From positions 1-45,999 of the forward strand of contig JAUCBJ010004658.1 in NCBI GenBank assembly GCA_032718475.1: a DNA stretch of 45,999 nt, read 5' to 3'. Source of the stretch: Nemertoderma westbladi (Eukaryota; Animalia; Xenacoelomorpha). A program made the position numbers and the translations under genes. A model generated the notes under the pieces. The model worked only from the letters and a program-made list of their open reading frames with translations, did not search any database and was not told the origin of the DNA. Of the stretch, positions 4,141-33,519 are shown piece after piece. Position 1 is the first letter of the stretch; each line of letters opens with the position of its first letter.

Positions 4141-4685
4141 TGATTTCTGATTGGTTGAAAAAATAAATAAACTAAATTAAGTATATTTCTGATTGGTTGA
4201 AAAAATAAATAAACTAAATTAAGTTATTTCTGATTGGTTGAAAAAATAAATAAACTAAATTAACTGTATTTCTGATTGGTTGAAAAAATAAATAAACTAA
4301 ATTAAGTTATTTCTGATTGGTTGAAAAAATAAATAAACTAAATTAAGTTATTTCTGATTGGTTGAAAAAATAAATAAACTAAATTAAGGGAGGTTTCTGA
4401 TTGGTTGAAAAAATAAATAAACTAAATTAAGTATATTTCTGATTGGTTGAAAAAATAAATAAACTAAATTAACTGTATTTCTGATTGGTTGAAAAAATAA
4501 ATAAACTAAATTAAGTTATTTCTGATTGGTTGAAAAAATAAATAAACTAAATTAAGTTATTTCTGATTGGTTGAAAAAATAAATAAACTAAATTAAGGAA
4601 GGTTTCTGATTGGTTGAAAAAATAAATAAACTAAATTAAGTATATTTCTGATTGGTTGAAAAAATAAATAAACTAAATTAACTAA
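4141..4685 (+). repeat. Left subterminal array: 13 copies of a 41-43-bp unit
   Basis: TTCTGATTGGTTGAAAAAATAAATAAACTAAATTAA plus a short variable linker (GTATAT, GTTAT, CTGTAT, GGGAGGT). Confidence 0.95.
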
Positions 4686-6986: not shown

Positions 6987-9260
6987 ATGGAAGGGGGGCC
7001 TGATGATCAGGAGAAACGCCGGCTTTTAACAGACTTAAGGAGGGATACCTATCTCCGTGTGGATGAAGTTTATCGCATATTTCATGATTCTGCATCAGTT
7101 GATACTAATAGGTCTTCCTCTACTGGTACATCACGCCTGACAGGTCATGTAAATGGTTCACACTCAAACCTATATATGGAAGCTGGGCAATTAACTCAGG
7201 GTACAATTAGTGACAATGCCAATAATCCTATTAGAATTTCACATAACCAGCGGAGTCTAAGTTCTGGTACACGGCGGTTGCAACATCGCCGTCAAGATGT
7301 GCTATCTACTCGAAGGCCTATTTCTAGATCTGTAGGACGTCCGTTAGAGGCAATACGAACAATACATTTTACTTGTAGCATTGATACTGGACGTGGTCAT
7401 AAAGTTCTAAAACATCCTCTGGGGGGATCAAATAAACTTGGACTTAAACTCAGGGTGAACCAGACAATGCAGGAAGTTCGTGAAAGTTTAATTAATACCA
7501 TTTTCTCTAGTGAAGGTGGGGAAAACAGGGCTCTAAAAGTACTGAAGAAAGCTTGTAATAGAGATGACTATTTTTGTACAGTCACAAATACGTTCGGTGA
7601 TAGTATCGAAAGCTTTGAGTCACTGGAGAAGTTCTTAGAGAGTGGTAAAATAGTAGGGATTCCTACAATATCTCTTTTATGTAAGAAAAAATCTTCTTTC
7701 ACTACTACTACTACTACCATAGGCGTACCGGTACCGGTAGTGGATGATCCTGGAATCCGGTGTAATTGTGGTCGCACTGGTTCTGCTATAGAAGTGATCA
7801 ATGGTAAATGTTTAGTTTGTCGCCAAGATTATGAATATAATATAAGTTTAGCTGTAGACAAATCTAAAGGACCTGAAGGTGATGAGGAGTTTATTGAAGT
7901 ACCGGTACCAGTGTATGATGATACAATGGATGTTGAAGTCGAAGTTGAAATTTTGGCGGCAGAAACAGGTGTAGATCCAATGCTCTCAAGTGCAACTGTA
8001 GTTCCAGAAGAAGATAACGACATAGAAATATCCCGAGAACAACTGGCTGAAAGACGATCGGTCTTCTACAGCCGCCAGTTTGAAGATGGTCAGTGTACGT
8101 CTAGTAACGATACTGGTCTTCGAAATGATGGTTTATCTCGTCCAAGGCGAAATGCAAGACCACCTCTGAGATACGGTGACTTTTTAGATAACTCAGCAGA
8201 TATTGACGAAATTATTACCTATGATGATGAAGCCGATATTTCGGGTGGCAATAAGAAGGTCTCAGTGAAACTTAATAGAAGTAATCTATTCAATGATGTT
8301 ATAGGAGTATTTACTGCCCTTGATAATATAACGGTGAATTTACTGGACGTAAGTTTTGTGGATGAGAGGGGTATAGATGATAAAGGATTGACACGAGAAA
8401 TGTTAACGCTTTTTTGGGAAGAATTCTATTTGAAGGGGACAAAAGGTTCCAGTGCTCTTGTACCCACTGTTAGACACGACTGGACAGAGGAGATGTGGCA
8501 TATTATTGGGAAAGTAGCTTGGTATGGATTTGTTAATGAAGGATACTGGCCGATAAGGATATCAAGCATATTCTGTAAGTTTGCTTATTTTGGTGAGACT
8601 GTTGCAAAGACCGGGATTACACCAGAAACGATAAACGGCCTGTTGTGCAACAACGAAATAGAATTAATTAAGAAAATCCGTAATAGGGAACCATTGGAGA
8701 AAGAAGATGAAGATCAACTTATAGACGCATTAGATCAGCTCGGTTGTCGGAAACAATTACGAGCTGACAATGTCGATGAAATATTATTGGAGTTAGCTTA
8801 TAAAGAATTCGTTCAAGTTCCGGCATTTATCGCAAAACATTTCCAGTTGGGCGCCCCTGGTAACCCTTTTAATTCACCTGATGAAATTGATAGTCTATAC
8901 AAAACATTACTGCCAACATACTCTAGTTTGTGGAAAAAACTAAACTTCCCCTTAGATATGTCAAAGGCGCAACTCGAGATTCAAGGTTATCTTAAAAAGA
9001 TGTTGAGGGAGTTCGACCCAAAGTTATTGGAAGCATTCGTTCGATTTGTTACTGGTTCAAATCTTCTTGTATGTGAATTTATTGTGGTTGGATTTTTCAA
9101 GGAGGACAAGTTCCAATCGAGTTTCGGACGTTCGATAACTGCGAGAACATGTACCCCACTGTTAACGTTACCAACAGACTATAACTCCTATATGGAGTTG
9201 AAGGAAGAGATACAGAAACTACTCATGAACGGAATGGGGTACTTATTTTCAGATTATTGA
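6987..9260 (+). CDS. HECT-domain E3 ubiquitin ligase-like protein, 757 aa, transposon-borne
   Basis: Uninterrupted ORF. HECT N-lobe motif LNRSNLFNDV...VSFVDERGIDDKGLTRE. C-lobe FVRFVTGS...ARTCTPLLTLPTDYNSY with the catalytic Cys in TC. Middle region has RQDYEYNISLAVDKSK and acidic linkers. Confidence 0.85.
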   Translation: MEGGPDDQEKRRLLTDLRRDTYLRVDEVYRIFHDSASVDTNRSSSTGTSRLTGHVNGSHSNLYMEAGQLTQGTISDNANNPIRISHNQRSLSSGTRRLQHRRQDVLSTRRPISRSVGRPLEAIRTIHFTCSIDTGRGHKVLKHPLGGSNKLGLKLRVNQTMQEVRESLINTIFSSEGGENRALKVLKKACNRDDYFCTVTNTFGDSIESFESLEKFLESGKIVGIPTISLLCKKKSSFTTTTTTIGVPVPVVDDPGIRCNCGRTGSAIEVINGKCLVCRQDYEYNISLAVDKSKGPEGDEEFIEVPVPVYDDTMDVEVEVEILAAETGVDPMLSSATVVPEEDNDIEISREQLAERRSVFYSRQFEDGQCTSSNDTGLRNDGLSRPRRNARPPLRYGDFLDNSADIDEIITYDDEADISGGNKKVSVKLNRSNLFNDVIGVFTALDNITVNLLDVSFVDERGIDDKGLTREMLTLFWEEFYLKGTKGSSALVPTVRHDWTEEMWHIIGKVAWYGFVNEGYWPIRISSIFCKFAYFGETVAKTGITPETINGLLCNNEIELIKKIRNREPLEKEDEDQLIDALDQLGCRKQLRADNVDEILLELAYKEFVQVPAFIAKHFQLGAPGNPFNSPDEIDSLYKTLLPTYSSLWKKLNFPLDMSKAQLEIQGYLKKMLREFDPKLLEAFVRFVTGSNLLVCEFIVVGFFKEDKFQSSFGRSITARTCTPLLTLPTDYNSYMELKEEIQKLLMNGMGYLFSDY

Positions 9261-9909: not shown

Positions 9910-10440
9910 TTAGATATACCAATACATCGGCACATTGCCATAACGTACAGTACTACTTTGCTGAGGAGATATAATATGTGGGTTTCTTGATAAGTAATAG
10001 TCACAGATGTTTGATACAGACCTTCGGCATGTTCGCATGTTAATTGTCATTACCGAGTTAAATCTGTCAATCAGATTGATATCCTCTATACTAACTGGAT
10101 GCAAATAGTTTGGATTATCGACAAACAATATGTCAGGTTTACCCCCAGGTGAAATAAGTCCACTTTTACGAAGTCGGTGGCTATTCCATTGAATTCTAAT
10201 AGAGTCAAGTGTTCTTTGAAGTAAGTCTAAATAAACGTAACGCACTATCTCAATATGTAGATTATTAGATGTGTCTATAATGCCATAAATTTCCAGCGAT
10301 CCAAAGTGAGACAACCAAGTTTGCATGCCGAGCATTGGGAACTTAGACCACCATGATTCAATGCGCTGATTGCGCGTGCTTTTTCCATATATAAAAACTT
10401 GTGGATCAGAAATATTTAGTTCATATAGACGTAAAAGTCG
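9910..10440 (-). pseudogene. C-terminal part of an IS3EU-type DDE transposase (integrase-core-like)
   Basis: Frame extends upstream of the listed ORF to RLLRLYELNISDPQVFIYGKSTRNQRIESWWSKF...WNSHRLRKS...PGGKPDILF. It is truncated at 10440, where it abuts the right TIR array. Confidence 0.8.
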
Positions 10441-10770
10441 TTTAGTTTATTTATTTTTTCAACCAATCAGAAATATACTTAATTTAGTTTATTTATTTTT
10501 TCAACCAATCAGAAACCTCCCTTAATTTAGTTTATTTATTTTTTCAACCAATCAGAAATACAGTTAATTTAGTTTATTTATTTTTTTAACCAATCAGAAA
10601 TAACTTAATTTAGTTTATTTATTTTTTCAACCAATCAGAAATATACTTAATTTAGTTTATTTATTTTTTCAACCAATCAGAAATACAGTTAATTTAGTTT
10701 ATTTATTTTTTAAACCAATCAGAAATAACTTAATTTAGTTTATTTATTTTTTCAACCAATCAGAAATCAA
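10441..10770 (-). repeat. Right subterminal array: 8 inverted copies of the same ~42-bp unit
   Basis: TTTAGTTTATTTATTTTTTCAACCAATCAGAAA repeats, the reverse complement of the units in 4141-4685. Confidence 0.95.
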
Positions 10771-11132
10771 TATTCGCATAATTTAGTTTAATTTGTTTCT
10801 GTTTTCTTAATCCCCTAAATAATATAATTTAGTTTATTTTTTTTCTTAATCCTCTTCGAAAAAAAATTAAATTAAATGTGGCCTAAATCAGCCACCGTAT
10901 CAGGTAGATAGAAAGAAAGAAATATAGAAATACACCGCACCATTAACTTTTATAATAAAATTTATGTAAAAATAGTGAGAGGGTTATCCACACTAAAATA
11001 GTAGCAACACCCAGTTTCAAACATTATAACATATAGGCCTAATGTTTATACCGGTATGTGATAGGGAAGAGGACACATTGAAACAGAGTCAGGGTCCCAG
11101 TCCCCTTATTTTAAATATGAATCTTAACATTT

Positions 11133-13300
11133 TTACGTCTGAAGTCCATCTACTTACTCCAGGTATTGTTTGGTATATTTGCATTTTTCTAAAAATAATA
11201 ATAAGAAGACTGGTACAAGGCTGACATAACTTCTGAACTAATCAGGTAGGTAGGTACCAGTACGATTCGAGAGTACAGGTTTTTGGTGATTTATTATATA
11301 TTAGTAATTGGCAATTCATTTAAAGACACAGTGTGCTCGGATGTACTGGGAACTACGTACCGTCGCGGTCACCAGAACAAACTCTTTGGAACTTAATGAA
11401 TTAACTACGTACAGTAATACATAAATAATAACTCAAGTTATCCTGTAGCTGATTATGAAACTGTAACCTGTTCTATGACTGCCGTATATTGTTTTGGTTA
11501 TAGTTACAAGCCACTGTAAGAGTAACCTGCTCAAGTACTTTTTGAAGTACTTTTGTTTATTTTGGAGGTGTCAACCCCCTCCAAATCGATCATTGCGGTT
11601 CCAATGAGCCTAAAGACAATGCAATAGGTGTACCAGAAGTTGGTCACCAGGAGGATAGAAGGCACGCATGCCACATAGCCGCATCAGTTAAAACCTTCCA
11701 CTCATGTATGGGGTATGGCGCCTCTTAGGCTAAACTTTTTCAAATTTTCTGAAGATTTCTTTGCCATGTTTTTGCGCTATTTGAAACATTATTTTGAGGT
11801 ATCAGCAGGATATTTAACTTAGTTATTGCTCAGAATCAGCAAGCCTAAATCTGTAAATGTACTCATACAAAATCATACAGACATATGGAAAACACTGCAA
11901 ACCAGAAATTGATCAGCAGGAAAACAAGGATAGTGCTGAGCATTGAGCTGTATGCTGATTAAATTACTATTCCTCAGTTGGCAACCGAGAAAAGCCACAA
12001 CGCCAGCTTTCTTTCGATTTCTTTCTTTAAAATGACAGGCAGTCCGAGTCCCAGTCTGCCAGTAGTAACCAAAATAATAAACGAGCATGACTGCATGATT
12101 TGGTGAATTGTGTGTTTAAACTGGTAACTTTCTGAATGTGTAGGGGTATTTGGTAAATTATAACATAAACATTCCCGTATGTCTCCCATTCCGACGATTT
12201 TCTTAATCCCCAATCTATGAAAGTTCGCTAACCGAACCCGGAACCACGAACCGATCTCAACTAACCCGCGGACAGCGGACTAACTCATTAAGAGTTCGAG
12301 GTGGTAATGTAATCTGTTTCTATTCGATTATATTACAGGATTATTCGATGAATTTAAGTGCTGATGTCATCAGTACGTGGCGTCGGGGGTGATAGGCTGA
12401 TAGGCCTATTTGCTTATCGCGCCTATCTGCCTAGGCCTATATGTTTGTATATCGGAATTCGATATGGTCTTCTGAGGGACTGCTGGTAGCAACGCTCTAC
12501 CGGCACCGGCCACCTTAATATGCGAAACATCCTCGGTATACCAACCCAACTATTGGCGAAATGGCGACAGTTTACTTACGGCTGTACGGTAAGTTTAGAC
12601 GTTTACGTAACATGCAACCGTACATAAAATACGATACGCTAGTTGCCAGTCAGCCAGCACTTTACGTCGAGTTGGCCTATGGACACGATCATCCGAATAC
12701 TCTGTACATGTGTTTTAAATTAATCGCTAATACTGTAATACAGTACGGTAATAGTGTTGTGATGCTATAATGGAAATGATCTACTGTACTTACTGACAGG
12801 GACAGCCTGTCTTCAGGCATAGTTCCTGAGTTCTGACTCCAACTAAACGAAAGACTAAGCTATACCGTCACACCTAAGCCTATTGAGTATTGAATTGAGC
12901 TCCATTTTCAAGTTCAGATCACATTGTGTCTGCCAACTAGGCCTACTAGGGTACAACTTTTCGCCACATCCGTACAGCCGTATGCATTTGCCGTATCCCT
13001 ATGTACATACTGATTACTGACATACGCGTATGTAATGGATTCCTATGAAGAATAATCCGGGTTTGGCTTTTTGCCGTATATGCACGTAGATGAAATTGTT
13101 CCCGTAGCCTACCGTAGGCTACCGTGCGTAATGTGGGACGTATTTCTGGGGTAAATCTTTTCGACCTACGCGTAGTTCGCAACATTTAGTCATATATCAC
13201 CAGTTACAGAGTTTTAACAATAACTACGCGTAGGTCCTACGCGACCTACGCCTGTACGCGTAGGGGCTACGTATAACTACGCGTAGGTGCTACCCATAAC
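11133..13300 (+). repeat. Duplicated upstream region of zinc-finger gene copy A
   Basis: Colinear and highly similar to 42891-45999 once the MITE at 44606-45560 is removed. Ends in TACGCGTAGG-type short repeats. Confidence 0.93.
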
Positions 13301-13739
13301 TATGCCTATACGTCGTTTATCATTAGTAGGCCTACGTATTCCAAGCGAGTCAGTACTAAAATAAGACACAATACGGTATGTTCAATAAACAACCCACAAC
13401 CATCAAATGCTTTCAACAGTAATGTATCCTATACCGGTATACTCTATGTAGTGGCATACGATAAGACTGCATATTCTTCACTGCATGCGTTGCGGGCGGT
13501 AAAATGTGTTAATAATTAATGTTTAGAGTTCAAAAATAGTTTACAAAGGAAATAGGCCGATGGTTCTTATCGATTCTCTATGCTTTTTATTGCCTTTGTT
13601 CACGATAGGGCAAGGATATACTGTATTTAATATGTTAACCCCTTGAAAAGGGAAGGGGGAGATTGGTTGCACTTGTTATTTAACCAAACAATTTGATTAT
13701 ATGCAGTATTTATCAGCTTTATCAGCTACAGTGACTTTA

Positions 13740-14564: not shown

Positions 14565-15278
14565 GCTACCGAGATACTCGTAACGGTTGACGATTTCTAT
14601 GGGAGTGTTATTCTAGGTAAACTTGTCTGCGCGAGCTAGATGCCCGGCTTTACGGAATTTAATAATTTTAGTTTTCTTTAAGTTTACAGTCATTCCGTTT
14701 AGGAGGCACCAATCATATAACGCATCGAGAGCGCGTTGTAGTTCCTCGCTGTCATCGGAATACAGTGCCAGATCATCTGCGTAGAATATCAGTTTAATAA
14801 ATCGACACACCCTAAGTATTGTGTGGGCGAGATCAGCGATAAATATTATAAAACACGTTGGGGATAGACAATCACCCTGGAGGATTCCGCGAAGTTGCTT
14901 AATGGTTTTCGATAGACGGAGTCTGTCGTATATTCGGATGTCATTGTTTAGTAGATCTTTAATTATACCGTAAATCTTCCCTTTAATACCAAAGTTATAT
15001 AACTTGTAAAGAAGAACTGCCCTTGGGACAACATCAAACGCCTTCCGGAAGTCGACGAACGCGACAAAAACAAATCGCTTGCCGGAGCCAGTTCGCCGGA
15101 AGGACGCCGAGATATCGGCAAGAAGTTGCTCCACCGCGTGGCGAGTAGACCTCCCCTGCATAAATCCGTATTGGACCCCGGGTATTAGGTGGATTACGTG
15201 TAGGCGAATTCGCTTATTAATTATTGATGTAAATAATTTCAGGAGAACCGAGAGGAGAGCGATTCCTCTATAATTAGC
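14565..15278 (-). pseudogene. LINE reverse transcriptase fragment (CR1/L2-group-like)
   Basis: NYRGIALLS, QYGFMQGRST, FVDFRKAFD, GILQGDCLSP, YADD, NLKKTK. After an in-frame TAG it continues IEIVNRYEYLG. Confidence 0.92.
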
Positions 15279-17054
15279 GTGTTGGTGAGAGTATTTCAAC
15301 CAAATTTGTTCGTAAATATCTCAGGAACATTAATCCCAACGATCTCAATTCCTATAACTTGATCAACTTCATTCGTCAAGATCCGGAATATGGCGATTTG
15401 TTCATCAACTCTCATCCAGAACTACAGGAAGTTCATAGACGACCCTATGAATATAGAGCCCGAGAACGCGAGTTAGAAAGAACTATCAAACAGAGGAAAT
15501 TTCTTACTACTCACGGTCTACCCACCGCTCTCGTGCAAACGACTCGTCAGGGACCAGTAAGAGCTGCTGTACTGAAACGCGCTCTGAAGGTTGTTCGACC
15601 TCACTCCACTGAGGTTGATATCGATCAACCGGGTACCTCGACCGGCAGATACACCGACCGTAATCCTAAACCTTCCAATGCAATTGTATTGCACCCTTCA
15701 CCCAGGAGTTATAGCCCTCCTAGTAAAGTGGCTCGCACCAAAGAGAAAAGGACTCTTGCTAGCCTCAAAAAACTGCGTAAACGCCATCCGCGTAAGAAAG
15801 ACTAACTGTTTAGAGTATTTTTATATTTTAGAAACTGTGATTTTTTATATTTTATAGAATTAAATCCCATTTTCTGGGAGCGGTGTAAAAGCTTTTGCGG
15901 ATATAACCAGTCATTTTTCTCCGCAATGAACTGTTTAGTTGTTTTAGCGGACATAACAAGCCATTTTCTCCGCAATGTACCCTGTAGGTGTTTTAGCGAC
16001 ATAACAAGCCATTTTATGCCGCAATACGCCAAATACTCTAAATAGAGTGTGGTTCAGATGACGAAATCTGTCAGCTGATTTGCTGTCGATGTGGAGCTTT
16101 CTTAACTTTCTTTGTTTGGCTCGCTCGACCAATCAGAGCGATTTTCATTTTATTTTGCACAGAAGCCTACGGGAAATCGCGCAATGCATTATGGTCTTTG
16201 TTTACCTTTCTGAGCGAGAACAACTGCTTGGAAATTATTCTGTACTTCTGTGTTGGAAGTTTCAGACTTTGGCCAACATTAGGCGGCTTTGATTATAAAA
16301 AAGTAAATATATTACCTGACTGATGAAACTGCATCTGGCTGCAAACCAAACAAACTGTCTGCACCAATTTCACCGCATTATTTTACTGCTATTTACTGTC
16401 GGTTATTAATTGTTACATGTTGATGGATATGTTGTTATATTTGGAGAATATCGAAAAATAATCATAAAACCCCAATCTTCTTGATTACCAAAGGTTAGAG
16501 AGACCGGTTACCGGTAGCAATTGCGACTTACATTACAGTGGTTTTAGTGTGCATTAAATGCTATTTCATAATCCCTACATGTGTCAGTTGCTATCCTCCT
16601 TATATATTATCAAATTCAGTGACGGTCGCCAGATCAGTGTGCAGCAATGTGAAGTCGTATGCAGTAGTGTGACAGATAATAAAGCATCTCCTAAAGAATG
16701 CGCCATTTACGAAAATCAATAGCCATCTCGTTGTATTTAGTATAAGTCATAACTCTGTTTTATACTTAAAGCGCCACGTCCTAAAGGAACTGTTAATATT
16801 TCCCCGAAAGTGAATAATATTCTCAGAGATTATATAGTAACTATCAATCGAATAATACCGTAGGTCTGCACCGGAATCCCTTCAAAGCATCCGAATCCAG
16901 TCTCCCTTAACTGTGGGTGAATGATAGCGCATAGACTGGCTTCGGCTAATGTTACTTCATGTGCATTAAATAATTGTTATAGGCTAAAGTCGATTTATAA
17001 ACAAGACACCTAAAATTGGCGGGTTAAACTGCTAAAGGTCTGAAAGCGCGAACA
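15276..17054 (+). mobile_element. 5'-truncated BEL/Pao element of a related subfamily (ORF3 C-terminus, PPT, 3' LTR)
   Basis: 15276-15805 is homologous to 31315-31843. Same GGGAGCGG PPT. LTR at 15884-17054. Confidence 0.9.
15884..17054 (+). repeat. LTR, diverged subfamily, 1171 bp
   Basis: TGTAAAAGCTTTTGC...GAAAGCGCGAACA termini are shared with the other LTRs; the interior is clearly diverged. Confidence 0.9.
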
Positions 17055-17962: not shown

Positions 17963-19268
17963 TAGTCCGCCTGCTATTCGTGTGCATCGAACTGCACTAG
18001 CGCGCCATCTAGACATCTAGAGGTTTTAAGAGTTTATTTTATTTGGAACAGTGGAGCACTTTATAAAAACCTTACACTACTTCGACCCCTCTTTCCATTC
18101 CTTACATGATTTCAACGTCCAATCAAATAATAACTTATTACCAATCCCAGGTGTTAATGCAAGAGGTGTTCCTAGTAGTGTAAGGATTGGGAATACGCGC
18201 CCGGCTTAACTTTGTAATTAATCTGTATCTTTGAGTAAGGTTTGTTTGGAAAACCGAGATTTCGTGATTTTTCCTAAAATTTAATGGGTTATCCAACAAA
18301 GCAAACGCCATTTACATGGTCATGTTAGTTTTCGTGCTGTGCTCCCTTTCTGGCACCCATCTCCAGTAGTTTCGTACTAAGATTTTCAATAGTTTTCATA
18401 ATTCACTAAAAATTAATTATATTAAAAAATTAATTTAAAATTAATTAAAATTAATTTATTTGCAATATATAGCGGTTTTTTTGGATGCTGAAAGCGATTA
18501 TAGAACTGCAATATTATTATTTATTTATTATTATTATATATTCGTGAAATTTTTTGGTAATTTTCAAAGTGTCACCTGGGGTACGAATAAAACAAGTAGT
18601 GCAAATATGTTAGTCAAAAATCACGTCAACAGCTTAAGTTCATTCAAATTTCGCATCCTTCCTGTTGGTACATGACTTGAATTTGCATAACTCAATGCAA
18701 TGATGTTGATGTTTGTTTTGTAGGCAGATACAGAGTGAGTACAAAACAAAGACCCAACACCCAATTATAAAGACCTGCATAATCATCTAACATGTGTTAA
18801 CTTTCGTTTATTGTTTTGGTTCCCCCAACACGCCTCAATAACGTGTTCCTTTACTAACCTGTTTCTTTAAATAGCAATGGTACTTATCGCTCTTATGGAC
18901 CTAACGCGACTTCACCTCTTTGTTTTGTACAGAACAGGCAGTAGTCATGGGTCTTTGTTTTGTACTCAACCGGCATATACATGTTGTTGGTTTACAATTG
19001 CGATACAGCAGAGATAGAGTGAGAGAGGATATATTATGGAGCTGGTAGAACATGCATCCAATCAGGTACAGTATTACCATATCCTCTTCATCTAACAGCC
19101 ACCCCAGACCTATGGGAGAAGATACATTGATGATGTGATGAGTACTAAGCTTATATACGATTGGTAGTTGGCTCTGGATAGGTGTCTCTCTTTAAACAAT
19201 ATTTATAAGGTGGCAGCAAGGTTGACTCGATTTCTCCATGTTTTGAACTGAAAAGACGATACCGAAGC
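17963..19268 (-). mobile_element. Degenerate Academ(X)-like transposon 3' part (continues 33114-~33200 after the LTR element)
   Basis: Minus-strand decayed translation VNELRYRLF..KHGEIESTLLPP...RANYQ...GW...WMHVLPAP then a Cys-rich tail. TAGTCC at 17963 is a possible terminus. Family assignment is from recalled motifs. Confidence 0.5.
18731..18977. mobile_element. Tc1/mariner-type MITE
   Basis: Inverted repeat TGAGTACAAAACAAAGACCCA / TGGGTCTTTGTTTTGTACTCA flanked by TA. Absent from the homologous segment at ~33910. Right end is imperfect. Confidence 0.7.
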
Positions 19269-20455
19269 TGTAAAAGCTTTTGCAGAATTAGCCGGTTATT
19301 TTCCCCGCAAAGTACTCTGTAGGTGTTTTAACGGACATAAAAAGCCGTTTCCTTACTGTACCGGTGTTTTAGTGGACATAAAAAGCCATTTCTTCTGTAT
19401 GTGTACCTTAGTGGACATAACTAGCAATTCTATGTCGCAATAGCTAGAATTCTCTTGAAACAGTGTAGTTACTATGACGACAGCTAACAGCTGATCTGTA
19501 CACGTGTAGTTTTTTCCTTGTTCTCCGTTGTTTCTTTGTTTGGCCAACCAATCAGAGCGATTCTCCTGCTATTTTGTACAGAAACCTCCGGGAAGTCGCG
19601 CAATGCATTATGGGTCAATGTTTACCTTTTTTCCTGAGCCCAGAACACCGCCTTTGGAACCTCTGTGTTTTCAGGCTTTAGCCCAACATTAGTAGGCTCG
19701 ATCATAGAAACGTATATCTGTTATCTTAACAAATCAATCATAACATAACTCACCTTATCATATTGTCAACTACAAACACCGCATTTTTACTGCTATTTAC
19801 TGTCGGTTATTGGTTATATCAGTTGATGGAATATTATTATATTTGGAATATCGATAAATAATTATAAAACCCTCAATCTTCTTGATATACTGAAGGTAAG
19901 AGACCGGTTACATATAACAGTTGTGACTCACATTAAAGTGGTTTTGGAGTGAATCTAATGCTATTTCATAGGCACTACATGTGTTGGTTGCTGTTCTCTT
20001 TATATGTGACTAAAATTAGTCAAGGTCGGCAGATCGGTGTGCAGTATTGTGCAGTAGTGTGTATGATTGTGACTGATAACAAAGCATCTCCTAAAGAATG
20101 CGCTATATACGTGAATCCGTAGCCATCCCGTTGTGTCTAGTTTAAGTCATAACTCTGTTTACATATTTAGAGCGCCACGTCCTAAAGGAACTGTTAATAT
20201 TTCCCGAAAGTGAATAATATTTGTCAGAGATTATATATTAACGATCAGTAGAATAATACAGTAGGCCTACATCGCAATAAGGTTGAGCTTCCGAATCCAG
20301 TCTCCCGGGTATATCCAGCGGGTGAATGGTCGCGCATAGACTGGCTTCGGCTAATGTAGTGTATCAAATACTCGTCATAGGCTAAAGTCGATTTATTATC
20401 TAGAAGACATCCAAATTTGGCAGGTTAAACTGCTAAAGGTCTGAAAGCGCGAACA
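19269..20455 (+). repeat. 5' LTR
   Basis: Direct repeat of 31922-33108, about 11 substitutions by eye. U3 has short GTTTTAGTGGACATAA-type subrepeats and a CCAAT box near 19548. Confidence 0.97.
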
Positions 20456-20466
20456 ATAACAGATAT
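20456..20466 (+). promoter_or_regulatory. Putative self-priming primer-binding site
   Basis: ATAACAGATAT directly after the 5' LTR. No TGG tRNA signature. Exact reverse complement of LTR positions 19714-19724 (ATATCTGTTAT). Confidence 0.55.
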
Positions 20467-21961
20467 TGCTTCTTTATTGCAGCGTAGGCAATAAAGCTGA
20501 AGTACCGGTCAACCGGTACCCCGTAGGCCTAACTACCCGGACCGGTACTTACAGCAGTACAGGTACAGCAGTATTATGCGATTGTGATATTGTATACCGG
20601 TAGGCCTTAATATTTAATCAGGGACGGCCGCCCTGGTTTTTTATTGAGATTTTACTTATTTCTGTCAGGTTTTATTTATTTGTAGGTTAATATTGAGCAG
20701 AAGACGTGTAAGCCTGCTCAGATTGTATAGATAATTTGTAGGCTGGACTGTTGTCTGACTGTTGTTAAGTCTGAAGAGATTGTAGTGTGTGTAGAGCGTA
20801 TGTCGGAAAAAGTACTAGTTAGGAACGTAGGGGCTTCCAGTGCTGTGAGGTAAATCCCCTTGAAAGAATAAGTCATACTACTCAGTTAGAACGCATACTA
20901 ACTAACCATTTCGGAGTCTGCATATACTGTGGTTTATTTAGGCTTGATAGTAGTCTGCCAGCGTTTGGTCTGTACTTTGTTTGTGTAGTCTGTAAAGGTC
21001 GCGTAATATTTATTATTCAGAGTTTATGCGATTATTCGCAACATTCATACCCCAAGTTTATTCCTACAGTAATTGTGCTTGTTATATATACCGTTATAGT
21101 TAAACTAACCCCGGTACTACATCAGGGCTGCTCGGCGTAGGTAAAGACTGGTGATTTTGTGCCCCGGTCACTCCAGCAGATACCGTGGTTCTTTTGGCTG
21201 TACAAGTATTTTTAACTACTGATTATTGGTTGTATAAGTACTTGTACCTAATTTAGGGTTTAGTGTACAGTGCTTTCCGAAGGTAATTAGTGTGTAGGCA
21301 GTATATTTGTGTTGTAAAGAGGTTAATAGGCACGTTGGTTCTGGTAGACCGCGGTAATTAACTTCTAGGTAGGAACACTCCGTGATACATAACGTAGTAC
21401 TTATAGCGATACGGCTATAAGTCGTCAGACGGTGGTATTTTTCCTATCTGGACAACGCAATATATTTACTACTACTTATTATTTTCAAATACCGTAGTAT
21501 CCTGTCCGTTGTAATAACCAGATATTCTAACCCTTTGTTAGGCTGGTTTGTAGACTTCTTGTAAAATTACCCTAAAAATTCGTACGTGTAATTTTTGTGT
21601 TTATTTAGAGATTGTAATCTCACCCCGAATTGTACGTAACTAGTAGTATTAAGTAACTTAGGTAAATTAGAATTATTCGTTTTAGTGTCCAACAAGTAGC
21701 ACTTCGCTGAGAGCGTACAGCTTCTGTGCAGTGACTCCTTCCTAGAAATAATAACATTTATTTCGAATATTGACAAAAACCCATTAAAACGGGTATATAT
21801 ATTATAAATCAACTCAAACCGATTTATAAAATAGTAGGCCTGTCTTACAACAATTAGGTCTAAATATCAGTTGGACTACTGCTTAAATAACGGTAATAAA
21901 GTAAAGTAAAGTAACCAAGTAACCCCTAAAATTCAGAAATTCAATTATTTAAAATAATTGA

Positions 21962-22220
21962 CATACCGGTATTTACAATAGGCTTATTATATTTATTTCT
22001 ATAAATTTAGGCTAAATTATATACCGGTATTCTGTAATTAATTCTAGTCTGTAATTATACTTATATATATACATTATAAGTGTAAGCTGTATACCGGTAT
22101 TCACGATAGGCCTATCATATATTTATATATATTTGCGCTGAAATTATATACCAGTATTCTGTGACAAACCTAGTCTGTAATAATACTTATATATATACTA
22201 TAAGCATACTGGTATTCTAA
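21962..22220 (+). repeat. Degenerate ~128-bp tandem duplication in the 5' leader
   Basis: Recurring ATACCGGTATT and CTAGTCTGTAAT..TACTTATATATATAC blocks. Confidence 0.75.
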
Positions 22221-22352
22221 TATATTGTATATATATTACGTTACACTGAGTAACGATATCGGTAATTAATTACTAGGCTAACAGTTGATACTGAATTACT
22301 AGACTTGCTTTAACTGTAATATAGCAGTAGGCATTCAACTGTACAAATAAAC

Positions 22353-25300
22353 ATGTCTGACACAAAGCAAAACCTGTCAGACAGTCTCCTAGATACCACA
22401 ATATGCGACCCAGACAGGAGTGTGGAACGTGTGAGACCGAAGTTCAATTCACCTCCTACTGTAAGAAAGATCATCCCTCCAGTAGTAGTAACAGATCCTA
22501 GGCTGGTCCAACACCATAGGTCAATCATAGGCACTCGAGCTCAGGTCAAGCAGGACCAAGAAGCAGCGGAACAGCAGCAACCCGCGAGCCGAGAACTTAT
22601 TTCTCAGCGGTCCGACAGCTCCAGTAGATGCGGTTTATTCGGACCCCCTTCTCATCCTTCCTGCAGCTGTACTCACTAGGGTATTGATTGCGGTGGAGGA
22701 ACACCAGATTGATTGGGCGAGAAGTAAGCGATCGACCAAGGATAGTTATGCGGGATATACAAGGGAAGAACTGAAGTCTATTGTCGAGTCGCAATGGAAC
22801 TTCCCCGGACCCGGACTCCCGTTTGACTTATCAGAAGCTGCCTGGGAAGACATACACAGGATGGGAGTGACAAAGGAAACCCGCGATCCAGCTGTATGGA
22901 AGAGGTCAGCAGCCGGATACGTACAGGGATTCTTCAGCTCTATGGAGCGATTAGAGGAACAATTGTTTCGACAACCACAAGGACCTCAAGAGCAGGGAGA
23001 GCTGCTTTATCAAGTTAGAGAAAGAATTCTAAGAATCGGACTAATCTTATCTGCCTTTGAGGAGGCTTCGAAAAGAAAACAAGACACGTCGTTGCAAGTT
23101 GCCGTAAAGACTTGGTTACAGCGGGTGAGTCTCCAAGTTCAAAGAACTGCTCCGTGGAAATCTCAGTTGGATGAGCGCTCAACCCATGGAGAATCAACAG
23201 ACGCTACCTTTTCCCAAGTGGAAAGCGAAGCGACAGCAGAGAAACCGCATAAGAGGGATGCTATTGACATCTATCTGTCAGACTATCAACGATTTGTAGG
23301 TGACGAAGAGTTGAGGAGACGGCTGAATGGACTTAGCCCCAATAGTGAAGGAGCCAAGCTTGTATTGGACGCAATCGATGTGGATATGTTAGCTGCGAAC
23401 CAAGCTAAATTCAATGAAAGCATCCGCATCACTAAGGTTCAAGAGGAACAAGTAAGGAAAAAACGTATAGAAGACAGAAAGACAGCAGCAGCAGCAGCGG
23501 CAGCGGCAGAAGTAGAAGCGGAAAGAAAGGCAGCAGAAGTGGAAAAGAAAGCGGCAATGGCAGTGGCAGAAGCAGAAAGAAAAGCGGCAGTGGCAGAAGC
23601 AGAACGGAGGGCATCTGAAGAGACAACCCAACTAGAGTTGGAAAATCTTCAAGAGAGGCAGGACAACTTCAATAAACAGTTAACAGCTAGTCAAATGCAG
23701 ATGATGAGTCAATCTACTCCCAAACGACAGGGATTTACATCATCTGATGAAGGCGATGCCACAGATCTTGAAGGCGGAGGAAATAGATCTCGTCTAAGTA
23801 GGCATAGAAGAATGTCCCACCGTCAGAAATTGCCTGATTTGCCCCCAGCTGTTAGAAAGCAACTAACTAACCCAGACTTAGGTAGTACAGAACCCACAGA
23901 CCAAATAATTAAAATAGAAAGACTCCCTACTATAGTAGATGAGCCTGAAATAATTAGGCCTGTTCTCGACACCACCCCTTCGGTGATAGAGACACCTGTA
24001 CTCCCAGAACTTACCTCTAAATTCCCTCTGCACAGCACTAAGCTACCTGTGCCCCACAGAACCATCCCTGAAAATGTTCATGTCCTGGACTCCGAGCGAA
24101 ATATTAATGATTTGTCGCCCGTTGTCCCTCGTCCGCCCGCTACAACGTTGGCGGCTCCCGCTTCGGCGGTCGAGTGGGTGGATGAGAGACGACGGGGGAT
24201 GGATCTCCTGCTCGGGCAGATGCAGGAGACTGTTCAGCAATTCAAGGGCACAGTAAGGGAAAGTAGGTTAGAGTTGCAAGAAGTGCAGCAAAGTATCGCG
24301 TTAGAACGCGATAAATTAGTAAACACCCAAAGAGGTATACCACCACCCCCGGTAACAATGTGTCAACCTGTTAGGTCTGAAGTATCTCATGCGCAAGGTG
24401 TGGAGCCTACACGCATCTATACTGCTAGTGAAGTAGAAACTCCTATAGTAAACCCTATTAAGGGTAATTATAAACCTGTTGACAATGATATCCCATATAG
24501 ACTTGATAATAATCCGAGAAATTTATATACCGATAACTCGATATTAAATAACACGATGGCCCAAGAAAGTTTTACGCGTCAAATGGCTACAACCGAAGCC
24601 CGTCAAGCGGTAAAGGTGGGAGAGATCGTCAAGTTCAATGGAGATGAGATGAAATGGCTACCTTTTAATGAATATTACAAAGATAACATACAGAACTCTG
24701 TGCTATCAAATGGAGAGAATCTTAGATTCCTCATCGAGTGCTTGGAAGGATCTCCCAAGTTAATGGCGTTAAAGTTTATTGGACATCCAGATGGATTAAG
24801 ACAAGTTTGGGATACCCTCAACATCAGGTATGGTAATAGGAATAACATAGCTAGGTATTTGTATGCAAAATTGGTAGCGCCCTGAAAATTCATTAGCAGC
24901 GGGATTATAGAGTTTTCCGATGAAATTCGGGAGATCTGTAGACAATTAGATTGGCTAGGTAAGTCTCATGAATATCAGAGTTCTATGGTTATTGGAGCCG
25001 TGGCCTCTACTTTACCGAAGGGTGGAGTAGGTACACGCTGGGATAAGAAAGTGTTATATATAATGGAACAGCAACGACGAGACCCTACCATGGCTGATCT
25101 CATGTCATTCTTAGATGGAGAAGTGAAATTACAGCTCCTAAAGCAGTCCAGAGAGAAGACACCGGAAAACAAGGTAAGTGAGAAACCCGTTTCTAGGAGA
25201 AAGGTAACACCAGTGTGTTATACCGACGATGGCGAAAGCCAGGCTTCTCAAGGAGAGGACAGCGAGAAAGACACTGAAAGATCTTATTATGTCAACAAAA

Positions 25301-25557
25301 CGCCAAAAGACGTAAGTAAATTCAGGTCCCGAACCAATGACAGGAGAGAACAGGTAAGAAAAACCCCTCCTACGTCTCCCAAGAGAATTCAGGTAAGAAA
25401 GCCCGAAGAAAGAGCGAGTGTGCACAACGTTACTCAAAATAAAGTAAGTAACATCAAACCAAAATGTGCGCTGTGTGACGGGCCACACCGTTTGAATGTG
25501 TGTGATGAATTCCTAAAGAAATCATTAACGGATAGACGGGAAGTCATGTGGGATAAG
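22353..25557 (+). pseudogene. gag: BEL/Pao gag (frameshifted near 22600 and 24880)
   Basis: Coiled-coil/Ala-Glu region, DUF1759-like KFNGDEMKWLPF...LSNGENLRFLIECLEG...LNIRYGN, and first zinc knuckle CALCDGPHRLNVCDEF. Confidence 0.88.
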
Positions 25558-26174
25558 CCGCATTTCACTTTATAGTGCCATGCCGCGCGTATCTCACCGA
25601 CGAACTTTTGCGGACGTTAATGGAGGAAATCGCCGCCTATCTCAACGAGAGACCGCTTATGCCAGTCTCATCGAGTCCCGATTCCCTGGAAGCGCTAACA
25701 CCCGCGCACTTCCTACTGAAGAAACCTGTGGCCATGCTCCCACAATCGGAAATCACAGACGGAGACGAATACTGCCGGCAAACTTGGCAACTTATGCAGT
25801 TGTTATCCCGTTGCTTCGCTGATCATTTCGAAAAACATTATCTGCCCACGCTACAACTTCGAACTAAGTGGTTTGCGCAGCAAGAAAACGTCAGCGCTGG
25901 AGACATGCTCCTTATTGTGGATTCAGATCTTCCACGTAAGCGGTGGCAGACAGGTCGTATCATCGAGACTCACATCTCGGGTGACGGTTTGGTGCGATCG
26001 GTAGAACTCGTCGTCATGCGACGTAACTTCAAGAAACCGGGAATTGTCTTCGAGACACAGCAGCTCAATCGCCCAGTTGGTCGTTTATGTTTACTGGAAA
26101 GAGACAGAGAACTCTCCGGAAACTATGGGAGGCAAGATACTCTTCCCACGACCACCTCCCTAATCCAACAATAA
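25558..26174 (+). pseudogene. pol: BEL/Pao integrase C-terminal remnant (DUF5641-like)
   Basis: LTDELLRTLMEEIAAYLNERPL...LTPAHFL...YLPTLQLRTKW...WQTGRIIETHISGDGLVRSV. Protease, RT, RNase H and the integrase core are absent. Confidence 0.9.
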
Positions 26175-26479
26175 TTCTTTTTCTCTTTCCTTACTGTCCG
26201 TATTACATTAGAAATACGTAACTACAGTAAGATGAAATGTCCGTACTTATTAAAGTACAATAAAGCTCCTACTATATTCAAGTATTATTGGTAAAGTAGA
26301 GTATTAGGAATGCAAAATTCAGATCCTCGTGTCTCGGCTAAACCAAGCTCTGGGTAGACCTTGGAAACGACTTGCCTCTTCTCACAGACATTGCTTCGTG
26401 CGATATTGCTCTCATACCGTATATTAAATAATACATATAGTAGCGTGATGTCCCTTTAACAGTAGCGTACAACGCAAAA

Positions 26480-26800
26480 TAAATCTGTTAAACCCTTTGA
26501 CCATCTGTAATTCTAGTCGATTAAGATATCGCGGCACCCACCGATATACTTGAAAGACAAAATTCTAGAATCAGTGGTTAACGTCCCCAGACAAGTTCTG
26601 GAATAAACTGGTGCCCATCCTAAATATTAATTATTAATATTTACAAAATCTGTCAAATTTTAGATCCTTTAAAATTCTAGTCTATTAAGATATCGTAGCA
26701 CTTACCGATACTCTTAAAAGGACAAATTTCCTAGAATTCAGGATCCTAGTCCCCAGACATGCTCTGGAATAAAATTGTGTCCATTTAATATTAAATAATA
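26480..26800 (+). repeat. Two diverged ~160-bp direct repeats, each able to form hairpins
   Basis: ATTCTAGTC..TTAAGATATCG..CGATA..CTT(G/A)A..GAC..CTAGAAT...CCAGACA.G.TCTGG at ~26509 and ~26673. Confidence 0.75.
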
Positions 26801-27607
26801 AAATTTACGGGAATAAATTTAAATTCATATTTTAATGAATTTAATAAATTGTCATTTTTATACAATTTATAACATTCCCAAAATTCCATAAATTAATAGA
26901 TCATGGGAGCGGAGATTCACCCTATTAAGTGTATTAGTGTGCGAGAATCTCCAATAGATAGTCAATAGCCGATAAAATTCATAAAATCATGTATAAAGAG
27001 GATATTGACAATTAAAGAATTACTATTAAATAGCATCCCAGATCTGTATGCATGAGAATTACCCTAATTCTACCACTAGCTTTCCATAATGTCACCATAG
27101 CAACAACCACGCTAGAATTAGAAGTGAGTTAAAAGAACAATAGAAAGCTTGCCCCATTGAATAGCATAGGGAATAAATAGCGCACTGCTAGTATCCAAGG
27201 ATACATAATAATAACGTGACATTCTGGAAGGCACTTGACTAACGGACAAATGGCCCGAATGTGTACAATTGGTGTCAGTTGTGTGGAGTTTGTGCGTTTA
27301 TAGGTGAATGTTACTACTAAAGTGTGTTTACAGTAGCGAGTCGCAATTGTGAAAGTAGCCTTAACTCTGGCGCAAAACCTGAAGTACATCTAAGCCTTTG
27401 GGACGGACAGTGGAGTGACTTGTGCCGGTTGTCGTTGTGTAGCTACATCGTTGGCGAAAGCACAGCGACGATGGTACATCGGCGCTGAGGATCTTACACT
27501 GTCCGGGGGCAGAGAGGGGTAGGCAGCAACGCCCTCTCTAGCCTAATATATAAACTCATTATAATATTGGTAAACTCATATAGCAGATATGACTGAGTTG
27601 ATAGAAG

Positions 27608-30600
27608 ATGATCTTGGTATTAGGGAGCGATATACTCTACCTTTACAGGGCGTTTGTCGATGGCTTGATATGCGGCGATGCTGGTCCAACTACTACGGAG
27701 GACGATGGTCGTTATATCGAACCGCCAATGTCCCAGGAGCAACTTACGCGTGAATTGGATTATGGAAAGTTCACCGCTCACTATATGCATCGCAATGGTA
27801 CGTATATGGACTTCTTAACTACTGGCCATCCTATCGATTTACACGATACGGACGATGTAGACACCGAAAGGGTAATGGTTTTATTTAAATATCATACCCA
27901 GCGGAGTCGGAATGATAAACCGAGAATTGAACACGAGAACTCTATTCGAAACAGACTCGAAAGGGAAGACGTTGAAGAGCCGGATAAACGCAGCGACTTC
28001 AACGATTATCTGGAATTCCTGAGAGAGACATATCTCAATATTGCCAGCCAACAAAATCTAGAAACTCGATATCCTCAAGGTATACATCATGACCCTATGA
28101 TAGAACTCAAACGACTCTATTTCACTATGATGTATCTTACCGCCGATCGACCGCTACCTGTCGTCCCAGATAGCTTCGAACAGATGGAGGAATATTGTAA
28201 AACTGGAGAACGATCACCCGCGTTTCCCCTGCAGGACGTGCGTCTTTGGTATTACTGCGACGAATGCCATAGACCCAATCAGCAAACGGAAAGACATAAA
28301 CATCCGCGGAGACGTTGCGCTAAACACAGTTTTACACGATATACTTATGGGAGTTTCGAGCGAAGCCTGTTCGACGTATCACCTACGGTCGCTCGGCTCA
28401 AACGATCCTTGAATAAACCAATGATCAGAGTTCCGGAATACTCGGTCAGACCTCCTCATTCCTCAGTTAGACCTCAGACTCTTGATCCTAATAGTATCAC
28501 GGATCCTCCTGAACTGTACTCACTGTTCAAAGATCTAGTGTTACCCGAACAGTTGATCGGTGGCACTCCGGTAGTGGGCTCACTAGATATTCGCCAACCC
28601 TACCTAGCCGGATTAGGACGCGGTCACCCAATATCGCCGTTTAACCCGTACAATCGTCCCGGCTTCACCCCGATACAACCCGTTACCGAAGTCGAGGAGA
28701 GCGTTGTACGAAACGCGTTAGATGCTATTCGACAGAAAATCGGAAAGGGAACTTACGATTGTTTAGAGAAACGCAAATTGCAGCAACAAGTTCAAGCGGT
28801 GAAAGAATTAGCTTTACCCCAGTTCGATAGAGAAATCCAGAATCTCGAGGAAGACATCGAATGTGGACAAACCTACTCTTTACAAGAGTTCCTAGACGAG
28901 CGTTTGCAACAACAAGCGGAGGAAAATCAGCTCGAGGAGAAACACATAGAAATGGATGAGAGAGAAGAAGCAGCTTTAGCCCAGCCAGAAGCTCAAATCC
29001 TTATGACGGATCTCTATTCCAAAACCATCATCCATCCTTCGATGGTTCCCCATTTCGGAGACAAACTCTTCGCCACGGCACAGCCTCAACCGGTTGATAT
29101 CAACCTAAGATCTCGAGATCTTATCGCTGACGCTCCCATGTTGCAACGTCCGCCAATCGAGGCCGCTCGTGTCGATGGTATACTCGTTTAACCTCCGGAC
29201 AATAGAGTGGATCTTGTCCGTCGTATGGTACACGATGTTAACATACGCGCTAGACCTTTACCGAACTCGTTTTATGGGATCAAAGATCACCCTTATTACG
29301 TCAATCTAACGCAATATTACATGGTAAAACCGGAAGATCCTACACATAGTCTGAGGTTTCTACCACTAATAAATCCTCTCGATCTTGTCGAACTCGAACA
29401 ACTGCAGAAACATCTGGATCAGTTAGTTAAAGTAAACTCATTTCGAAAACCATATAATGTTTCCAGAATAGAGAAAGAGACAATACCTCCGTATAATCTT
29501 GATGGATTCATCAAAACTCGATTAGTACACTGGAATCTTGACGTGTTATTCGAGGAGGAAAGAATACAACGATATGGAGATGTAGAAACATATACTACAC
29601 AATATTTAAAGTATAGAGATTTACCTAATGCTAGCGAATGCGCTACCTTGTGGCATCCAGTGGGAATGACTCTAGAAAACGCCACTAAAGAGTGGAATGA
29701 GACTCTTAACGTTATCGAGATGTATGGAGTTGTCACTTACGATAACGAAGGTAGCGTTCCGGTTGGAGAACTGGGAACTACGCGAATGATACATATACGA
29801 GGACTAGCTGGTTCTACCCACGTATTTACTCGAGCGTGTTCCGATGTGATTGATTATTCTTTTGAGACCCTTACCGAGATACAAAAGAAACTCCGACATG
29901 GACAATTCGAACTCGCGCAGCGTTACATCACCGACACCGAGCGCAAACCGGCCATGGGTATCGATGGATCGATGTTACCCCAGCCCGTGCTCGAGATGTT
30001 GTTTAACGAAAGAATCCTTAAAATCGGCTCAGCTGTTTATGGAGATCTACAAAACGACTTTCGGAACATGGAGAACATTCCATACCCTTTCGTCGATACT
30101 CAGCTGATTGCTCCCTGGGCAGAAGGCCGAGGTTTCTTCCGCACTATGTATGCCAATACACCCAGCGGCATTACTAAAGTACAACGAACCTCCATCGGAC
30201 ATCTTGCCTTTCAAGAATACGGATGGAATTTCAAGGTTGGAAATCCTATCAATTACCAACAAGTATATGGAGATCATTATTCTCGTTTATACTTTGACGG
30301 ACCATTGACCGCCCCTGGCGCCGTGTATAGCTTTATGAGTGTTCCACTTCGTCCCTCCTTAGCTATATACACGATCTTTGAAAACGCCGCACTTGCCGGT
30401 TGGCTAGCCGATGTGTGCAGTCGTACCATACGCGCCCATCCCTTAATACTTGGAACCAAACTCGCCAAGCTAGATGAACACAATAAATTCATCCGCTTCG
30501 AATGTTTCCGGCGCTTTCTGACTCCGTTCCGTAACGTTGATAGTCAGTTCAAGGACCGCGCTCTGACCAAACTCAGTCTAAGAGACTCAGCTGCAGAGAA

Positions 30601-31843
30601 GTTAAACAGCGCGGGATTCGCCCTTTTCCAGGACGTTTGTATACAGAACTTACACTCATCTGTTATACAAAGACCCCGAATACCCACGGGTTATTCTGTC
30701 GTGGAAGTTCAGACAGTGGGTCCGCTTGCGGAGACAGCCGCACCTACCTCAGCTATGCAATTGGAAGACGAACCAATATGCTTAGAATCTGAGGAGATTC
30801 AGCCTACAGCGCCCCGGAGCAGCGATAACGACTACGTCTTGGAGTGGTATCAAGGTCCACAATGTCTCACCGCATACGATTATCGGCACGCCAACTATGT
30901 TTCTCGAAAACGTTGCCGATTATGCGCATCGAGAGATCATTTCACCCCTATGGACTCAGACGTACCCTGCTCCTATTTCCACGAACAACCGATGATGGAG
31001 ATCTATTGTGCGTATTGCAGACTTAATAACTCGCACATTTTTGCAGTTTGCCCCCAATTTATGACTCAATGCCACCACTGTCAACTTAAAGGACATGCCA
31101 GTTTTAATTGCCCTTTTAACCGCGATTTAGAAAGCGTAGATGAGATGATTACCCTGCGCTACATCCGAGCTTGGGAAGCGAACGCGGATTTACATTGTGA
31201 GTCCCGCCATCGCTATTACCCTGGACGCGCTTACGAGGGAGTTTACGCATTCCATCCTTATCTATTCGCGTCTGTTGAACAAAAAACACGCATACCGAGT
31301 TACGAACTAATGAAGCGTGTTGGTGAGTGTATTTCCACCAAATTTGTTCGAAAATATCTCAGGAACGTCAATCCTAACGATATTACTTCATACCATTTGA
31401 TCAATTTCATCCGTCAAGACCCTGAGTATGGCGATTTATTTATCAACTCGCACCCTGAGTTACAGGAAGTATCTCGAAGGCCCTACGAATATCGAGCCCG
31501 AGAACGCGAGCTGGAAAGAACCATTAAACCGAGGAAGTTTCTCACCACTCACGGTCCACCTACCGCTATTGTCCAGACGACACGTCAAGGACCAGTAGGA
31601 GCTGCTGTCCTGAGACGCGCCCTAAAGGCCGTTAGACCTCGCTCCACTGAAGTTGATATCGATCAACCAGGTACCTCGACCGGCGGATACACCGATCGTA
31701 ATCCTAAACCTTCTGATGCAATTGTATTGCACCCTTCACCCAGAAGTTATAGCCCTCCTAGTAAAGTGGCTCACCCCAAAGAGAAAAGGACTCTTGCTAG
31801 CCTCAAAAAACTACGTAAACGCCGTCCGCGTAAGGAAGACTAA
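27608..31843 (+). CDS. ORF3: ~1400-codon accessory protein with a DEDDy-like 3'-5' exonuclease domain and CCHC zinc knuckles (one in-frame TAA at 29189-29191)
   Basis: The 527-aa and 878-aa ORFs share a frame and are separated by a single stop. ExoI VVTYDNEG (~29741), ExoII LPQPVLEMLFNERILKIGSAVYGD (~30044), FVDTQ, TSIGHLAFQEYG, ExoIII-like PLRPSLAIYTIFE (~30368). Then CRLCASRDH..C, CAYC..H..CP, CHHCQLKGHASFNC, and a basic C-terminus. Confidence 0.75.
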
Positions 31844-31913
31844 CTGTTTAGAGTATCTTTTATATTTTAGAAACTGTGATTTATATATTTTATAAATTTA
31901 AATCCCATTTTCT

Positions 31914-31921
31914 GGGAGCGG
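31914..31921 (+). promoter_or_regulatory. Polypurine tract
   Basis: GGGAGCGG abutting the 3' LTR; identical in the truncated copy at 15876-15883. Confidence 0.7.
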
Positions 31922-33108: not shown

Positions 33109-33519
33109 GAAGCTCGTTCACGTCATTAACTTCTGACATTCATGTATAGCAAAAAGTATTATGCATAAGTCAGGTCCAAGATTAGCTGATATAGTGTTTA
33201 TGTTACAATGCGTTTATTCTACTTAGAGAGCCACACTTTTGAAAAAGCTGGCATTTCAGGACATCGTTTTCATCCCTTGTAATGTATTTGAGTTGGTTGA
33301 AGGTCATGATGGCATTGATTTGTGCCCATTTATTGCCGACACCCTCATTATCATCTCGAATATGAATGTCACATACTTGATCAAGTCTATGACGTTTGCT
33401 ATTGGATACCCCCCCCCCCCCCCCCCCCCCCCCCCCCACAACCCCTTTCAGTGAAACCTGCCTCTGCACTGATGTCTATATTATTCTTAACCTTCCAACA
33501 CATGTTAATATTCATCATT

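Follow-up and report, generated by a model that had tools for sequence, protein, structure and literature searches.

The locus described here raises the question of how an LTR retrotransposon begins reverse transcription when no tRNA-type primer-binding site (PBS) follows its 5′ LTR. The element lies in a window of 45,999 nt from Nemertoderma westbladi (contig JAUCBJ010004658.1). The initial annotation had proposed that this element, read as BEL/Pao, primes with a piece of its own transcript in the manner of the fission yeast element Tf1. Our analysis supports the core of that proposal: comparison across related families and RNA folding make it likely, at a probability of roughly 0.7, that the element primes minus-strand DNA synthesis with a piece of its own RNA. 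An RNA start exactly at 19714, a fixed 11-nt primer, the part assigned to an exonuclease and the full Tf1 structure were not supported.

The element spans 19269-33108 on the forward (+) strand, on which its parts and the other LTRs described below also lie. It covers 13.8 kb with the RT region absent, and is bounded by a 5-bp target site duplication, GAAGC, at 19264-19268 and 33109-33113. Its 5′ LTR (19269-20455; 1187 bp; TGT...ACA, with the terminal ACA at 20453-20455) is 99.07% identical to the 3′ LTR (31922-33108), which is preceded by a purine-rich tract, GGGAGCGG (31914-31921). The TG..CA LTR ends, target duplication and polypurine tract (PPT) are hallmarks of Belpaoviridae, as are the gag-type and integrase-type domains, found here as a gag region with DUF1759 (22353-25575; Pfam, E 8e-6) and a C-terminal integrase remnant with DUF5641 (25557-26174; Pfam, E 1e-19). 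Together with PF05380 in three of four homologues of the integrase remnant, these domains bear out the BEL/Pao identity, and on DUF1759 and DUF5641 we classify the element as a young, defective member of BEL/Pao (Belpaoviridae). The gag region of this copy is disrupted by a frame change near 22530-22680 and an in-frame stop at 24883-24885, and its pol lacks protease, RT, RNase H and most of the integrase, so that this copy would need help in trans. Two ORFs follow in one frame, separated by a single stop codon (27605-31843): ORF2 (27605-29191; 528 aa stop to stop), with no Pfam match, and ORF3 (29192-31843; 883 aa), with a predicted DEDDy-like 3′-5′ exonuclease domain and CCHC zinc knuckles. 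A tree of integrase fragments did not resolve the place of the element, and its long branch (1.85) and identity of at most 44% indicate that its relatives are distant. The LTR region was covered by 11,739 contigs in run X1 and 3,486 in run X3; these thousands of contigs, a figure that is not a copy number, point to an abundant family.

The window holds two further LTRs of this kind, a solo LTR (33967-35132; TAGAC duplication; 87.6% identical) and the 3′ LTR (15884-17054) of a 5′-truncated, diverged copy (15276-17054; 78.9%). The truncated copy adjoins an RVT_1 fragment on the reverse strand (14613-15320, (-)). The element itself is flanked by 77% inverted copies of one sequence (18993-19268 and 33617-33886), which suggests insertion into a small element with inverted ends. 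Elsewhere, apparently inverted arrays of 41-42 nt units (4043-4689, 6987-9260, 9910-10446 and 10436-10767) surround one ORF with a HECT domain and another that resembles an rva_4 integrase, and the region that they bound is possibly a DNA transposon with cargo. Two copies of one unidentified repeat, 95% identical (11132-13308 and 42892-45994), a C2H2 zinc-finger array (37974-38850) and a Mutator-like transposase (39811-41502, (-)) were also observed.

The primer-binding site and its match in the LTR

Directly after the LTR end lies a PBS of a non-tRNA type (20456-20467), which reads ATAACAGATAT at 20456-20466. The initial annotation had noted the lack of TGG in these bases, and TGG is in fact absent over the whole stretch between 10 nt upstream and 100 nt downstream of the LTR end. 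The 11 letters are the exact reverse complement of ATATCTGTTAT at 19714-19724 in the 5′ LTR. With the preceding T, this motif forms the candidate self-primer (T)ATATCTGTTAT (19713-19724), 731 nt from the LTR end. The reported retention of the motif in the 3′ LTR (32367-32377) and the solo LTR (34385-34395) was confirmed, as was the difference in the diverged LTR at 15884, which reads AAATATATTAC at this site and departs from the motif at 4 of 11 positions. Because the latter is the 3′ LTR of a 5′-truncated copy, its own PBS is unreadable. The next letter is C in all four LTR copies, and the solo and diverged LTRs diverge immediately past the primer motif.

The AT-rich letters of the motif, the defects of this copy and the changes at 4 of 11 positions in the diverged LTR would all suit a chance match of an 11-mer, or else an RNA fold that has nothing to do with priming, the true PBS having been lost from this copy. 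We consider this highly improbable, with p about 0.001-0.01 for the match. In dinucleotide shuffles of the LTR, at least 11 nt matched in 28 of 20,000 cases at offset 0 and in 87 of 20,000 at offsets 0-5. Only 3 of 11,456 interior 11-mers, this site among them, have their reverse complement in the LTR, and with spliced junctions permitted too, 5 of 500 interior sites reached 11 nt. The LTR-PBS junction is moreover common to many contigs across several runs, and relatives have the same feature at the same place, as described below.

Variation within the family was examined in contigs of four runs aligned over 20418-20505, with variants listed from a share of at least 2%. No such variant was listed at 20457-20462, 20465 or 20466. 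The PBS variants were 20456 A>T (37% in X1 and 36% in X3), 20463 A>T (10% and 9%, respectively), 20464 T>C in one contig, and 20467 T>A. The A at 20467 is the majority letter, with 66% of summed contig depth in X1 and 64% in X3, and it pairs with T19713, so that the complementarity grows to 12 bp. The T alleles at 20456 and 20463 mismatch the motif of this LTR unless those subfamilies, which are unphased, altered their motif too; none of the 40 LTR variants listed out of 387 lay inside the motif. Position 20456 is perhaps an unpaired spacer, because relatives show spacers of 0-5 nt. A second high-depth leader (X4 record 23) differs from the window's PBS at positions 5, 7 and 9. We rejected this leader as evidence of covariation: two of its changes would be compensated by the diverged motif, but the two are unphased and only 8 of 11 letters fit, and another site in the diverged LTR fits it better (9 letters). 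Contigs of run X5, which we guessed to be RNA, do not cover 19510-19733 and say nothing on the RNA start.

The lack of listed variants at 20457-20462 in the four runs would also suit a host RNA primer, such as a 5′ tRNA fragment ending in the anticodon loop, in which case the LTR match would be a competing switch or incidental. The PBS core TAACAG is complementary to CUGUUA, which we take to be the loop of tRNA-Asn(GUU), and the 20456-T allele lengthens this match to 7 nt. Priming by half-tRNAs exists in copia lineages (PMC6317226). The tRNA match nevertheless amounts to only 6-7 nt, compared with 11-12 nt for the element's own LTR, and the PBSs of relatives are unrelated to one another, each matching its own LTR. 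On these matches a host primer is quite improbable. The window itself has no tRNA gene.

Primer-binding sites of related families

A metagenome scan with two BEL/Pao polyproteins as queries yielded 77 loci in 61 families (80% identity). The 56 loci (47 families) with at least 450 nt upstream of the match were searched for own-LTR complementarity, 21 loci being left out; the search took contiguous matches and GT-AG junctions, and complement-only and reverse-only searches served as controls. Of the 47 families, 18 gave a hit of any kind (controls, 7 and 7) and 12 gave a match of at least 12 nt (controls, 2 and 2). The best hit was a strong GT-AG splice junction in five families, versus 0 and 0. 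In a wider search the counts were 24 versus 6 and 12, or 12 versus 0 and 1 when matches of at least 12 nt were required; its filter was picked after seeing the data, and for most of the hits the LTR end was deduced from the match. The hit in L068 and a 15-nt hit in L058 were rejected as plain inverted repeats rather than primer sites. DNA-pattern scans of the metagenome and viral contigs gave 0 matches, and protein scans of the viral contigs found no relative.

In six related families the LTR end is defined, in four of them by comparing two copies whose flanks differ and in the other two by the contig end. TGG was present in the first 8 nt of none of the six. In five of the six, the PBS pairs with 12-15 nt of its own LTR (null 0-1/500 each), while the window's element reached 11 nt in the same test (null 5/500). 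These matches run across an intron in L007 (15 nt), L019 (14 nt), L008/L076 (12 nt) and L058 (13 nt), and L021 has a 12-nt contiguous match. L014 fails, as its 5′ LTR gives 4 nt and only its 3′ LTR has an 11-nt junction. L008 and L058 fail too once the splice rule is made stricter, and the rule was loosened after L008 was seen. Set against the LTRs of other families, each PBS matched only 4-9 nt. The letters of the PBS thus change between families yet the complementarity stays, which is not what a tRNA primer would give. This own-LTR match across families, together with the absence of TGG, makes self-priming likely.

The 20 selected cases, the window included, share further features. The primer ends in AC or AT, with C next in 16 of 20, and both the GTTAT end of the window's primer and the TTAC of the diverged LTR, each followed by C, fit this pattern. 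In 13 of the 20, an A(A/T)TAAA signal follows the primer within the LTR, and in none of the 20 does one occur in the 60 nt upstream; a primer placed at the start of R would lead one to expect this arrangement. Where the primer is split, the intron is present in both LTRs of the relatives, which would fit splicing of the 5′ copy only.

In eight loci (L002, L007, L015, L016, L019, L032, L036 and L059) the complement of the PBS exists only across an LTR intron; these introns are GT-AG, 75-478 nt long, with donors mostly GTAAGT or GTGAGT. Spliced and contiguous types showed no significant clustering in the integrase-fragment tree. Spacers of 3-5 nt separate the LTR's CA from the paired site in L007, L017, L021, L025, L027 and L035. 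Integrases usually remove 2 nt, which is shorter than these spacers.

We think it reasonably probable that a broad branch of BEL/Pao is free of tRNA priming and uses an own-RNA primer, often joined by splicing, with elements of the window's type as intron-less derivatives. If this is true, splicing of the LTR intron would be a switch for reverse transcription in many BEL/Pao families. For the window's element itself a splice-built primer was considered and rejected. A junction at 19720/20423 would give 12 bp with 20456-T, but GTTATC makes a poor donor, GG replaces the acceptor AG in the diverged LTR, and a hairpin explains the bases.

Transcription start, primer formation and ORF3

Folding predicted a 19-bp helix between 19664-19682, likely part of U3, and the LTR end (about 20431-20450). 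In the young LTR this duplex has a predicted energy of -24.7 kcal/mol (0/60 shuffles), and its equivalent in the diverged LTR -18.4 kcal/mol (13/60 shuffles, not significant). On this modelling, the helix could circularise the RNA or turn off priming of transcripts that start upstream. A structured U5 domain is also predicted just 5′ of the PBS (20330-20452), in which 20330-20342, downstream of the primer, pairs with the U5 end at 20438-20452, and 20416-20437 forms a hairpin. The hairpin after the PBS noted in the initial annotation is real, with coordinates that were off by 4 nt: it occupies 20473-20495, its arms TTTATTGC and GCAATAAA lie at 20473-20480 and 20488-20495, and its loop and outer stem differ among copies. 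A possible 76-nt GT-AG intron 3′ of the primer (19896-19971) is suggested by the sequence and by an insertion variant in contigs; its sites are missing from some copies.

The predicted probability of the central primer/PBS pair was 0.85-0.97 for RNAs starting at 19668-19714 and 0.10-0.23 for RNAs starting at 19560-19656. This drop coincides with inclusion of 19664-19682, which competes if it is at the RNA 5′ end. A start exactly at 19714 is thus not supported, since pairing is predicted wherever the RNA begins between about 19668 and 19714. A fixed primer length of 11 nt is likewise not supported, as the paired stretch in relatives is 10-20 nt and often lies across an intron.

For the self-priming that we favour, transcription would start shortly upstream of the motif, at about 19668 to 19714, and the RNA 5′ end would fold onto 20456-20467. 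Cleavage of the RNA would then fall between ...GTTAT and the conserved C at 19725; the RNase H of RT is the probable agent, as described for Tf1, and an intact copy would provide this RT in trans. The RT would extend the 3′ end so made across U5 and R, and plus-strand synthesis would copy the primer and regenerate the PBS, and in this way the two sites would stay matched.

Own RNA might instead prime from the 3′ LTR copy. Transcription would then start downstream of the motif. The diverged LTR speaks for such a start if its TATAAA at 16294, which precedes the motif by 11 nt, serves as a TATA box; in the young and solo LTRs TATAAA is absent and the corresponding letters are CATAGAA. The U3 copy at 32366-32377 would pair with the PBS, the RNA would be circularised by a helix of the 19664-19682 type, for which the strong U3/U5-end duplex of the young LTR speaks, and the primer end would arise by cleavage or by exonuclease trimming, ORF3 looking like a 3′-5′ exonuclease. 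With the polyadenylation signal located 3′ of the primer in 13 of 20 cases, however, cutting or trimming at that site would cost the RNA the R copy that strand transfer requires. The intron in both LTRs of relatives with split primers, which would fit splicing of the 5′ copy only, and the lack of ORF3 in relatives also argue against priming from the 3′ copy, and we regard it as unlikely.

ORF3 had been suggested to help generate the primer 3′ end. From its sequence, it is predicted to resemble a 3′-5′ exonuclease with zinc knuckles: its Atlas score against the PF01612 cluster is 0.92, and its motifs YDNEG, GD and YTIFEN align with those of protein P0005, the third having E in place of D in both proteins. 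Pfam gave no hit for the exonuclease domain, a PDB search returned nothing significant and the fold model (pLDDT 33) was unusable. A word-index search found 0 homologues and a full HMMER scan two remote hits; besides ORF3, only the remote proteins P0005 and P0006 combine exonuclease and knuckles in this layout. Homologues of ORF2 or ORF3 were found in 0 of the 77 related loci, and in nine of nine signature-bearing loci measured, the 3′ LTR begins 139-303 nt past pol. As signature-bearing relatives are without ORF3, the signature exists without the enzyme and its role as primer maker is not supported. The ORF3 exonuclease is probably an accessory gene, dispensable for the priming step.

Comparison with known priming systems

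The ICTV profile describes Belpaoviridae as tRNA-primed, with an 18-nt PBS for tRNA-Arg or tRNA-Gly and genomes of 4.2-10 kb, and terms their replication poorly understood (PMC8742986). The window's element resembles them in its LTRs, PPT, DUF1759 and DUF5641 in gag-pol order and homologues with PF05380. It differs from the profile in lacking a tRNA PBS, in its length of 13.8 kb even without RT, and in its extra ORFs. The profile's statement on the PBS does not hold for this element. Term searches found neither "PBS" nor "tRNA" in PMC3118150 and PMC554778, and no report of self-priming in BEL/Pao was found in a search that had most subscription journals and Repbase notes outside its scope.

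An extra 3′ ORF3 with a DEDDy-like exonuclease likewise occurs in the LTR elements Juno and Vesta of bdelloid rotifers; in the portion of PMC5408684 available, the role of these ORF3s is given as unknown and no tie to priming is mentioned. Juno and Vesta belong to other LTR lineages, whereas the domain in the window's ORF3 is joined to CCHC knuckles and has E in its third motif.

Self-priming has been predicted for TAR copia elements (Houba, Osr-1) and for the plant Tcn1 clade, on the criterion of at least 10 nt of complementarity beginning at an offset of 0-5 nt from the LTR; the accessible text of that study (PMC6317226) does not list BEL/Pao as a self-priming group. The complementarity of the window's element falls within this definition, although TAR and Tcn1 are plant elements of superfamilies other than BEL/Pao.

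Tf1/sushi elements offer another close parallel. The Tf1 primer is the first 11 bases of its own RNA, cut by RNase H (PMC7175516), and lies with the PBS in a three-duplex structure, the "pretzel" (PMC10085805). In Tf2, start-site choice decides whether the RNA can be reverse transcribed (PMC5341516). In Tf1 and Tf2 of S. pombe, Tj1 of S. japonicus and the Tf1/sushi group, the PBS follows the 5′ LTR directly and, in place of a tRNA site, offers complementarity to roughly 11 nt of the LTR (PMC7175516, PMC4600332, PMC10085805); the window's element has this same feature, a PBS complementary to about 11 nt of its own LTR within 0-5 nt of the LTR end. The PBSs of Tf1 and of the window (20456-20460) also both open with ATAAC (PMC11042837).

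Tf1/sushi elements are Ty3/gypsy chromoviruses, whereas the window's element carries BEL/Pao domains only, and its ORFs that were scanned gave no chromodomain match. Folding found no Tf1-type flanking helix adjoining the primer or PBS ends (window rank 0.99), so the full Tf1 structure is not supported. The primer of the window's element also lies 731 nt from the LTR end, and its relatives differ from Tf1 in their 0-5 nt spacers and often intron-split primers. If the self-priming reading is true, a mechanism shown in fission yeast extends to a third LTR superfamily, in animals, and such elements would be overlooked by PBS-based annotation and may lie beyond silencing by 3′ tRNA fragments. We conclude that the element likely primes as Tf1 does, without being a member of Tf1/sushi.
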